Under the pieces are notes generated by a model that was not told where the DNA came from, did not search any database, and worked only from the letters and a program-made list of their open reading frames with translations. A stretch of 64,000 bases of DNA from TPA_inf: Saccharomyces (lineage: Eukaryota): assembly GCA_000146045.2 (NCBI GenBank), contig BK006949.2, positions 640,001 to 704,000 of the forward strand, written 5' to 3'. Shown here piece after piece: positions 5,273-5,949 of this stretch (positions are counted from its first letter, which is position 1; every line of letters begins with the position of its first letter). A program made the position numbers and the translations under genes.

Positions 5273-5601
5273 AGATATAGAAGACCGTAAAGTAGTAGTG
5301 GGTTTGAAGCCTAAATAAGTAGTTTTGTACGTACTATTATTTTAAGAGAAGAACATCCATAGAAAAGAAAAGAAGAAAAAGAAACGAACCAGAAGAGGGT
5401 AGCAGAATCAGTCATTCACGCACCCGGCCTGCGCTGCGTGCACCGACTGCGTGCGTGCGTGATTGGTAATGCAGTGAATCATGCTTTTTCATGACGCCTC
5501 CTCCCCGCCCCTGAGCCTTCGGTGGCCGCCGAAGTCGGGTATTAATGGGCGCCCCTTTCCTGGTGTCCGGGAACCGCCTGCCGAAAACCACCCTCCGCAG
5601 G

Positions 5602-5609
5602 TCCGCGGA
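5602..5609. promoter_or_regulatory. Pdr1/Pdr3 response element, perfect TCCGCGGA
   Basis: Exact PDRE consensus at caggTCCGCGGAagg, ~345 bp upstream of the SPO24/YPR036W-A ATG, within a GC-rich island. Confidence 0.55.
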
Positions 5610-5648
5610 AGGTGGGTGTGGCTGTCCCCGCGCAAATCCGAGATCGAT

Positions 5649-5656
5649 TCCGCGGC
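5649..5656. promoter_or_regulatory. PDRE variant TCCGCGGC
   Basis: gatTCCGCGGCggg lies 40 bp downstream of the perfect PDRE. It is one mismatch from the consensus. Confidence 0.35.
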
Positions 5657-5949
5657 GGGTCGGTCATTCTTTTCATTTGCGCGCTAATATGCGCTGTGAC
5701 TGGCGGTTAGTCATCTGCGTGATCAATCGTTGTCATGACGCTCTATAACGTAAGAGAACTTTAGAGGGGGCTCAATTAGCATGAAGAACAGACACATATA
5801 TAAGGTCTCTAGATTTCTCCAATAGCTCAACTCTCACAATTGTTTCCTCTAGTCCTTGTAAAATATAAAAAATCATCATCAAACAAGCAACTACAAAACA
5901 GCTTTACTGACAACTCACACAAATAACACAAAAAACAAAAATTTCAACA

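Follow-up and report, generated by a model that had tools for sequence, protein, structure and literature searches.

The GC-rich island upstream of SPO24: a site-dense promoter that very probably serves several inputs and keeps its base composition across Saccharomyces

We analysed a stretch of 64,000 nucleotides of Saccharomyces cerevisiae (GenBank assembly GCA_000146045.2, contig BK006949.2, positions 640,001 to 704,000 of the forward strand; hereafter the window, with coordinates counted from its first nucleotide), and in particular a short island rich in G+C (GC) that lies between the genes VMA13 and SPO24. The gene order is GLN1-VMA13-SPO24-ERV2-TIP41-TIF5, in synteny with S. cerevisiae. 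The open reading frame (ORF) of the glutamine synthetase GLN1 spans 2208-3320 and is followed by VMA13, which encodes subunit H of the V-ATPase (3836-5272; 99% identical to the S. cerevisiae protein), by the coding sequence (CDS) of SPO24 on the plus strand (5950-6153), and by ERV2 on the minus strand (6448-7038). The 67-aa product of the SPO24 CDS matches Pfam PF22044 and is 100% identical to Spo24, which together with synteny secures the name SPO24/YPR036W-A given to this gene by an earlier reading of the DNA from the letters alone (the sequence-only reading). The island, 5400-5760, sits in the 677-bp VMA13-SPO24 spacer (5273-5949). As we argue below, it is with high confidence the upstream regulatory region of SPO24, holding both activating (UAS) and repressing (URS) sequences.

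The composition of the island depends on where its borders are drawn. The value of about 65% GC proposed by the sequence-only reading applies to the central ~240 bp (65.1% over 5420-5660), and not to the full 361 bp (58.4% over 5400-5760); intermediate borders give 62% (5411-5710), the richest core reaches 69% (5498-5609), and the left part (5400-5609, 62%) is richer than the right one (5610-5760, 53%). Windows of 300 bp over the 64 kb have a mean GC of 38.5% (standard deviation 5.3%), and all of the about 25 richest ones fall within the island, the best at 62% and the next best elsewhere at 52%. Four control intergenic spacers at the same locus average 32% GC. The ratio of observed to expected CpG dinucleotides in the island, 1.1-1.2, is the level predicted by its composition. 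The island is real and statistically exceptional, and what it amounts to is an ordinary but unusually dense promoter.

To place the island in an evolutionary context, we aligned the syntenic spacers of six species: S. cerevisiae, S. paradoxus, S. mikatae, S. kudriavzevii, S. arboricola and S. uvarum. The protein search with VMA13 gave no match in the Saccharomyces sensu stricto group other than the one of S. cerevisiae itself, and the orthologous loci were reached via SPO24 instead. The GC peak is found in the whole genus: the 200-bp window with the highest GC of the 6.2-kb locus falls in the island in all six species, where the orthologous span has 54-64% GC and its centre 64-74%, against 32-38% in the other spacers. 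The two halves of the island differ in how well their exact sequence is kept. The right half (5610-5760) has 66% of invariant columns, the GC-richest left half only 26%; the neighbouring CDSs have 63-74% and four other intergenic spacers 18-43%. The 3' half of the island is thus as conserved as coding sequence.

Two sites of the type recognised by the transcription factors (TFs) Pdr1 and Pdr3 lie in the island, exactly where the sequence-only reading had put a perfect and a variant pleiotropic drug response element (PDRE), some 300-350 bp from the start codon. PDREs are 8-bp everted CGG repeats, for which we used the published types A (TCCGCGGA), B (TCCACGGA or TCCGTGGA), C (TCCGCGCA) and D (TCCGCGGG). 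The left site, TCCGCGGA at 5602-5609, lies 348 bp from the ATG of SPO24 and is the sole perfect PDRE in the 64 kb; on the minus strand it reads TTCCGCGG (5603-5610). The right site, TCCGCGGC (5649-5656, plus strand), is contained in TTCCGCGGC (5648-5656) and lies 301 bp from the ATG at 5950. In a 2023 study of Pdr1 by cleavage under targets and release using nuclease (CUT&RUN), a peak with a type A PDRE was assigned to SPO24, and the only type A site of the window is the one at 5602-5609. The top PDRE-like motif in the Pdr1 peaks of that study is TTCCGCGG, to which TTCCGCGGC is an exact match. This motif occurs only twice in the window, once in each of the two sites (5603-5610 on the minus strand and 5648-5655 on the plus strand, 45 bp apart), against 0.57 occurrences expected. 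Judging from this match, the site at 5649-5656 may work like a PDRE. Apart from these two sites, the window has a single PDRE-type match, TCCGTGGA (type B) at 50389-50396, which falls in a 569-aa ORF (50080-51789) and probably occurs there by chance.

Both sites are conserved. The left PDRE is of type A in S. cerevisiae, S. paradoxus and S. mikatae, of type D in S. kudriavzevii and S. uvarum, and lost in S. arboricola; the right TTCCGCGG is kept in all species except S. mikatae, where it is changed. Each site is therefore kept in five of the six species, and every species has at least one PDRE-type site; the loss in relatives that the sequence-only reading named as a refutation of its assignment did not occur. 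We extended the comparison to the loci of Maudiozyma humilis, M. saulgeensis and two further assemblies, in which the VMA13-SPO24 spacer is longer (1.9-2.4 kb in these four Maudiozyma-like loci vs about 0.7 kb in Saccharomyces) and contains no called gene. A profile of the island searched against the four loci with nhmmer gave one match, of 30 nt around TTCCGCGG (E = 1). Beyond Saccharomyces, the full island can no longer be aligned, and the short TTCCGCGG site alone persists: at least one copy lies upstream of SPO24 in all four distant spacers, and the chance of finding at least one TCCGCGG-type site, estimated by dinucleotide shuffles, is 0.34, 0.019, 0.068 and 0.031 for the respective spacers. 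Two of the four, M. humilis and M. saulgeensis, have the longer TTCCGCGGC itself in the spacer upstream of SPO24. That TTCCGCGGC is as conserved as the canonical PDRE within the genus, and that TTCCGCGG is present in four distant yeasts, argues for an ancient control of SPO24 by the Pdr1 family. The spacer of M. humilis also has two perfect PDREs 52 bp apart (-1880 and -1828), and its TTCCGCGGC, at -638, is in a window of 65% GC.

The assignment of the island to Pdr1/Pdr3 is thus upheld by both the conservation tests and the published CUT&RUN peak. It also fits the literature on the gene: as far as the passages of PMC4134269 and PMC12974944 that cite Miura et al. (2001) tell, YPR036W-A was first noticed as a Pdr1-regulated transcript, and a 2026 paper found SPO24 to be epistatic with PDR1/PDR3 for spore number.

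The PDREs are interleaved with sites of a different kind. Using the consensus definitions of PMC1326232, we found two middle sporulation elements (MSEs; gNCRCAAAW, the site of Ndt80 and Sum1): MSE1, CGCGCAAAT at 5629-5637 on the plus strand (-321), and MSE2, its exact inverted copy, at 5675-5683 on the minus strand (-275). These are the only two copies of CGCGCAAAT in the 64 kb (0.27 expected), and both fall within the range of 80-400 bp upstream that is typical of gNCRCAAAW. The core CGCAAAT of MSE1 is kept in five of the six species; MSE2 fits the strict consensus in S. cerevisiae alone, and its core TTTGCGC is invariant in all six. The order of sites is therefore PDRE, MSE, PDRE, MSE within about 80 bp, with 37 nt between the arms of each inverted pair.

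The MSEs connect the island to the published transcripts of the gene. Hurtado et al. (2014; PMC4134269) described a short SPO24 mRNA and a form about 100 nt longer, the latter mid-meiotic and carrying an upstream ORF (uORF) of 14 codons; the deletion of two MSEs abolished the long mRNA and left the overall mRNA level unchanged. The sole 45-nt ORF that fits the description of this uORF is at 5781-5825 (plus strand). The published MSEs would be those at 5629-5637 and 5675-5683, because no other match to CRCAAAW lies 5' of the uORF. From the 95-nt "5'-extended region" of PMC4134269, taken as 43 nt plus the uORF plus 7 nt, the long mRNA would start at about 5738 and the short one at about 5835, which leaves nearly the whole island upstream of both. 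The element CATATATAAGG (5795-5805, plus strand), which is invariant or differs by one base in the six species, is the putative TATA box of the short mRNA. The ATG of the uORF is found at the aligned position in S. cerevisiae only: the position reads ACC in S. paradoxus and S. mikatae and ACC/AAG in S. uvarum, and the ATGs present in S. kudriavzevii and S. arboricola are shifted relative to the S. cerevisiae start. A conserved functional uORF peptide is thus unlikely, and this lack of conservation fits the weak effect of the uORF in PMC4134269.

Such a strongly conserved, GC-rich block could in principle be a structured RNA, either a non-coding RNA or a structure in the 5' leader, and a structured element was one of the two fallbacks of the sequence-only reading. 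The plus strand does fold somewhat better than shuffled sequences (z = -2.8, a score reached by 1 of 100 shuffles; the single-sequence z-scores are -2.8 and -2.0), and, given the start that we infer for the long mRNA, this transcript probably includes the final ~20 nt of the island. Yet both mRNA starts lie downstream of almost the entire block, and unpaired positions are as conserved as paired ones. In the six-species core, RNAalifold gave an unfavourable covariation term (+0.61), the predicted pairs being nearly all invariant. An Rfam scan of 4500-7000 (E <= 10) had no match in the island, and two sub-threshold snoRNA-like matches outside it. The modest fold z-scores are explained by the palindromic factor sites. 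We thus regard a structured RNA as very unlikely.

The other fallback, a relic of different origin, has in its favour a composition unlike that of the surrounding yeast DNA. An explanation of this class would have the island be of foreign or mobile origin, or else a protein-coding gene that is degenerating or emerging, for which one could invoke two overlapping ORFs open in S. cerevisiae on the plus strand, at 5481-5687 (68 aa) and 5545-5748 (67 aa). The island keeps its syntenic position in all six species, it contains no tRNA or tmRNA gene, and blastn showed no similarity to any of 72,556 plasmid records. The ORFs are present as the sequence-only reading described them, which had dismissed them as noise of GC-rich DNA, rightly so: the other five species differ in the frame, strand and length of their ORFs, and indel lengths are not divisible by three, so that we rejected both as coding and regard them as spurious. 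An origin as a relic or as a gene is extremely improbable.

Other conserved elements surround the PDREs and MSEs. On the left, TGATTGG (5460-5466; CCAATCA on the minus strand) is kept in four of the six species and matches the consensus of the CCAAT box, which makes it a candidate site for Hap2/3/4/5. The palindrome CTTCGGTGGCCGCCGAAG (CGG-N6-CCG; 5517-5534) contains a URS1 match on the minus strand, TCGGCGGC (5525-5532), a candidate site for Ume6/Ime1 that fits DSGGCGGC (PMC1326232) and is kept in five of the six species. A composite element, TGCAGTGAATCAT...ATGACGC, is found on the plus strand at 5470-5497, and a second copy of this module at 5716-5741. In its general form, TGC(A)GTGA(A)TCA...(T)CATGACGC, it has two copies about 245 bp apart that flank the GC-richest centre and are both conserved in the six species; the footprints of the first (5470-5482 and 5491-5497) are invariant or differ by one base. 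The similarity between the two copies exceeds that of mononucleotide shuffles (p ~0.009 for local and ~0.001 for global alignments). The footprints of the core block are at 5618-5655, 5659-5668, 5690-5704, 5707-5726, 5735-5742 (ATGACGCT) and 5745-5753 (ATAACGTAA), and conserved boxes of the region include TGCAGTGAATCAT, ATGACGC (two copies), TTAGTCATCTGCGTGATCAA and ATAACGTAA. The footprint at 5707-5726 contains TTAGTCA (5707-5713), a candidate site for factors of the AP-1/Yap type; TTAGTCA and TGAATCA are present in all six species. We also compared the island by eye with the consensus sequences of Abf1, Reb1, Rap1, Aft1 and Xbp1, none of which fitted or was conserved. The sequence-only reading was right on the PDREs, but it missed the two MSEs, the URS1 match, and the ~150-bp block conserved at the level of coding sequence.

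Conservation in the island is lowest (5-15% of invariant columns) in an imperfect inverted repeat at 5406-5464, which has 22-nt arms that are 73% complementary and looks like lineage-specific GC-rich filler. The CGTGCG-type repeats of the sequence-only reading are located here: the string is present (5431-5461), but Tandem Repeats Finder (TRF) reported no tandem array in the island, and CTGCGTGC occurs twice (5434 and 5447) within the inverted repeat.

Taken together, these elements suggest that the island is, in all likelihood, a compound array of TF sites, dense and constrained, that lets one small gene answer several inputs. Its GC-richness would then follow from the fact that most of the sites are themselves GC-rich (CGG repeats, CGCGC, GGCGGC, CCCCT). 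Dimers of Pdr1, possibly also of Pdr3, bound to the two everted CGG repeats would provide basal and xenobiotic-induced transcription from the TATA at 5797. The timing of meiotic expression would be set by Ume6/Ime1 acting on URS1 and, on the MSEs, by Sum1 and then Ndt80, the last of which would activate the upstream start near 5738. Sites of the basic leucine zipper (bZIP) type (TTAGTCA, TGAATCA, ATGACGC) would mediate the induction by stress and by amino-acid starvation. Finally, sites could turn over within the poorly aligned centre, which would explain that composition is kept there where exact sequence is not. Part of the composition is indeed motif content with positional turnover: seven 5-mers of the centre are common to the six species (1.7 expected), as are two 6-mers (0.0 expected), and these shared k-mers include CTCCGC and the 6-mer GCCGCC, the latter in support of the URS1 match.

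Several observations weigh against this interpretation. The site TCCGCGGC is none of the published PDRE types A-D. The text of PMC4134269 gives no coordinates for its MSEs, so that equating them with the two sites of the island is an inference of ours. The assignments of URS1, HAP, Yap/Gcn4 and stress response element (STRE) sites are consensus matches only. The triplets CGG/CCG are weakly enriched (observed/expected ~1.3; p = 0.03-0.16 per species in mononucleotide shuffles); the enrichment has the same direction throughout but is insufficient to explain the GC content. Last, the variable columns of the island have 61% GC vs 55% for the invariant ones, and variable columns of the control spacers have 29-41%. 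Since invariant columns are no richer in GC than variable ones, discrete conserved sites do not fully account for the composition. GC-richness is maintained beyond these sites, i.e., composition itself is kept across the genus.

The GC-rich filler found at the same place also differs between species: S. uvarum has GCCGTT repeats, and S. arboricola repeats of its own. The tandem repeats in the island of S. uvarum comprise about four copies of GCCGTT and about three of a CTCCTCCGGGC-like unit (at ~2370-2640 of its locus); the island of this species reaches 72% GC, and its whole 6.2-kb locus is also richer (50% vs 42%).

As to the cause of this compositional conservation, it is conceivable, if clearly less probable than not, that what is maintained genus-wide is GC content rather than exact sequence, either because it favours nucleosomes that cover an enhancer with several inputs or because a recombination hotspot has stayed in place and left its mark. 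In the first case, composition would be a selected trait: G+C content favours nucleosome occupancy, and a GC-rich stretch of ~250 bp would make a "covered" promoter, in which the sites are masked in unstressed vegetative cells. The regulatory sites would lie inside the stretch without causing its GC content, and the cover would underlie the very large dynamic range of SPO24. The composition of the six species is in line with this, as GC is kept at 54-64% in the span and 64-74% in the centre despite the 26% of invariant columns in the left half, variable columns match invariant ones in GC-richness, and different filler repeats occupy the same position. So is the behaviour of the promoter. YPR036W-A ranks first genome-wide for nucleosome loss after treatment with 3-aminotriazole (3AT; PMC3239181), it is an exemplar gene for the eviction of histone H3 from promoters on sulfometuron (PMC4728374), and the strength of its promoter swings from low to above that of TDH3, exceeding the maximum pTDH3 signal late in culture, at 24 h (PMC8857431). 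However, the published nucleosome disruption score concerns the gene body, the k-mers shared by the six species in the centre show that motif content makes up at least some of the composition, and three of the four distant orthologs lack a marked GC peak at the retained TTCCGCGG, M. humilis alone having a clear one. We thus consider a covered promoter as a possible, tentative explanation.

In the second case, GC-biased gene conversion would have produced the GC-richness as a side effect, at a meiotic recombination hotspot that has persisted in this promoter throughout the genus. In yeast, the hotspots of double-strand breaks are found in promoters; they keep their positions across Saccharomyces and are correlated with the GC content around them, and the elevation observed here is compositional and reaches unconstrained columns in six species. 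Yet four other spacers of the locus that also contain promoters show no such elevation (29-41% GC), the sharp edges of the island coincide with regulatory footprints, and GC-biased conversion is weak in yeast. This makes a by-product of conversion unlikely.

A dense, multi-input regulatory array, which we favour, can be compared with known systems. The promoters of PDR5, SNQ2, PDR3, RSB1 and YOR1 have, as the island does, everted CGG repeats like TCCGCGGA at a distance of a few hundred bp upstream of the gene, and more than one site per promoter. Occupancy by Pdr1 has been reported in vivo (the SPO24 CUT&RUN peak), and each of the two SPO24 sites is flanked on one side by TT/AA, a feature also of the TTCCGCGG motif. 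SPO24 differs from the rest of the Pdr1/Pdr3 regulon in that it encodes a 67-aa sporulation protein of the prospore membrane, not a transporter or a lipid gene, in that its second site, TCCGCGGC, falls outside types A-D, and in that its PDREs are interleaved with MSEs. It is also not among the promoters for which the 2023 CUT&RUN study gives the strongest binding of both Pdr1p and Pdr3p.

Middle-sporulation promoters such as those of ADY3 and MPC54 (PMC1326232) resemble the island in having gNCRCAAAW in the preferred interval from -80 to -400 and a conserved DSGGCGGC nearby, and the MSEs of SPO24 are experimentally required (PMC4134269). In contrast to these promoters, the MSEs of SPO24 drive an alternative upstream start rather than the sole promoter, overall mRNA being unchanged on their deletion, and the promoter of SPO24 is active outside meiosis too (PMC4728374, PMC8857431). 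The architecture recalls a third class. At loci with a long undecoded transcript isoform (LUTI), such as NDC80, a distal element specific to meiosis produces a longer mRNA that bears a uORF. Similarly, the long mRNA of SPO24 arises from a distal meiotic element and has a uORF. However, translation is not repressed by this uORF, the long form is apparently functional (PMC4134269), and the ATG of the uORF is not conserved in three of the five sister species.

A more distant analogy, and an analogy only, can be drawn with the CpG-island promoters of vertebrates: the island exceeds 200 bp, 50% GC and a CpG observed/expected ratio of 0.6, it overlaps a promoter, and its composition is better kept than its sequence. 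However, CpG is no commoner in the SPO24 island than composition predicts. S. cerevisiae is not known to have cytosine methylation, and the mechanism that creates CpG islands therefore does not apply.

The PDRE, the MSEs and the nucleosome behaviour of SPO24 had already been published, and the central interpretation of the sequence-only reading is correct and documented. What is new is the conservation of both PDRE-type sites across the genus and deeper, the 3' half conserved at the level of coding sequence, the interleaved layout of PDREs and MSEs, and the conservation of GC content independently of sequence. The interleaving provides a concrete layout for studying how regulators of drug response and of meiosis share one promoter. 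The conservation of GC makes the island a natural test case for the role of base composition in the chromatin and dynamic range of yeast promoters. If composition is indeed what is conserved, this would be a rare yeast promoter kept by its composition, and the composition would underlie one of the most dynamic promoters reported.

Two further features lie in the same spacer, between VMA13 and the island. A block of 20 nt, AAGTAGTTTTGTACGTACTA (5317-5336), is near-invariant in the six species and lies 45 nt past the stop codon of VMA13; it is probably a signal for the formation of the 3' end of this gene. Directly 5' of the island, a purine-rich (AGAAA)n tract of 5.8 copies (5361-5388) gives the island a sharp AT-rich edge on the side of the VMA13 terminator.

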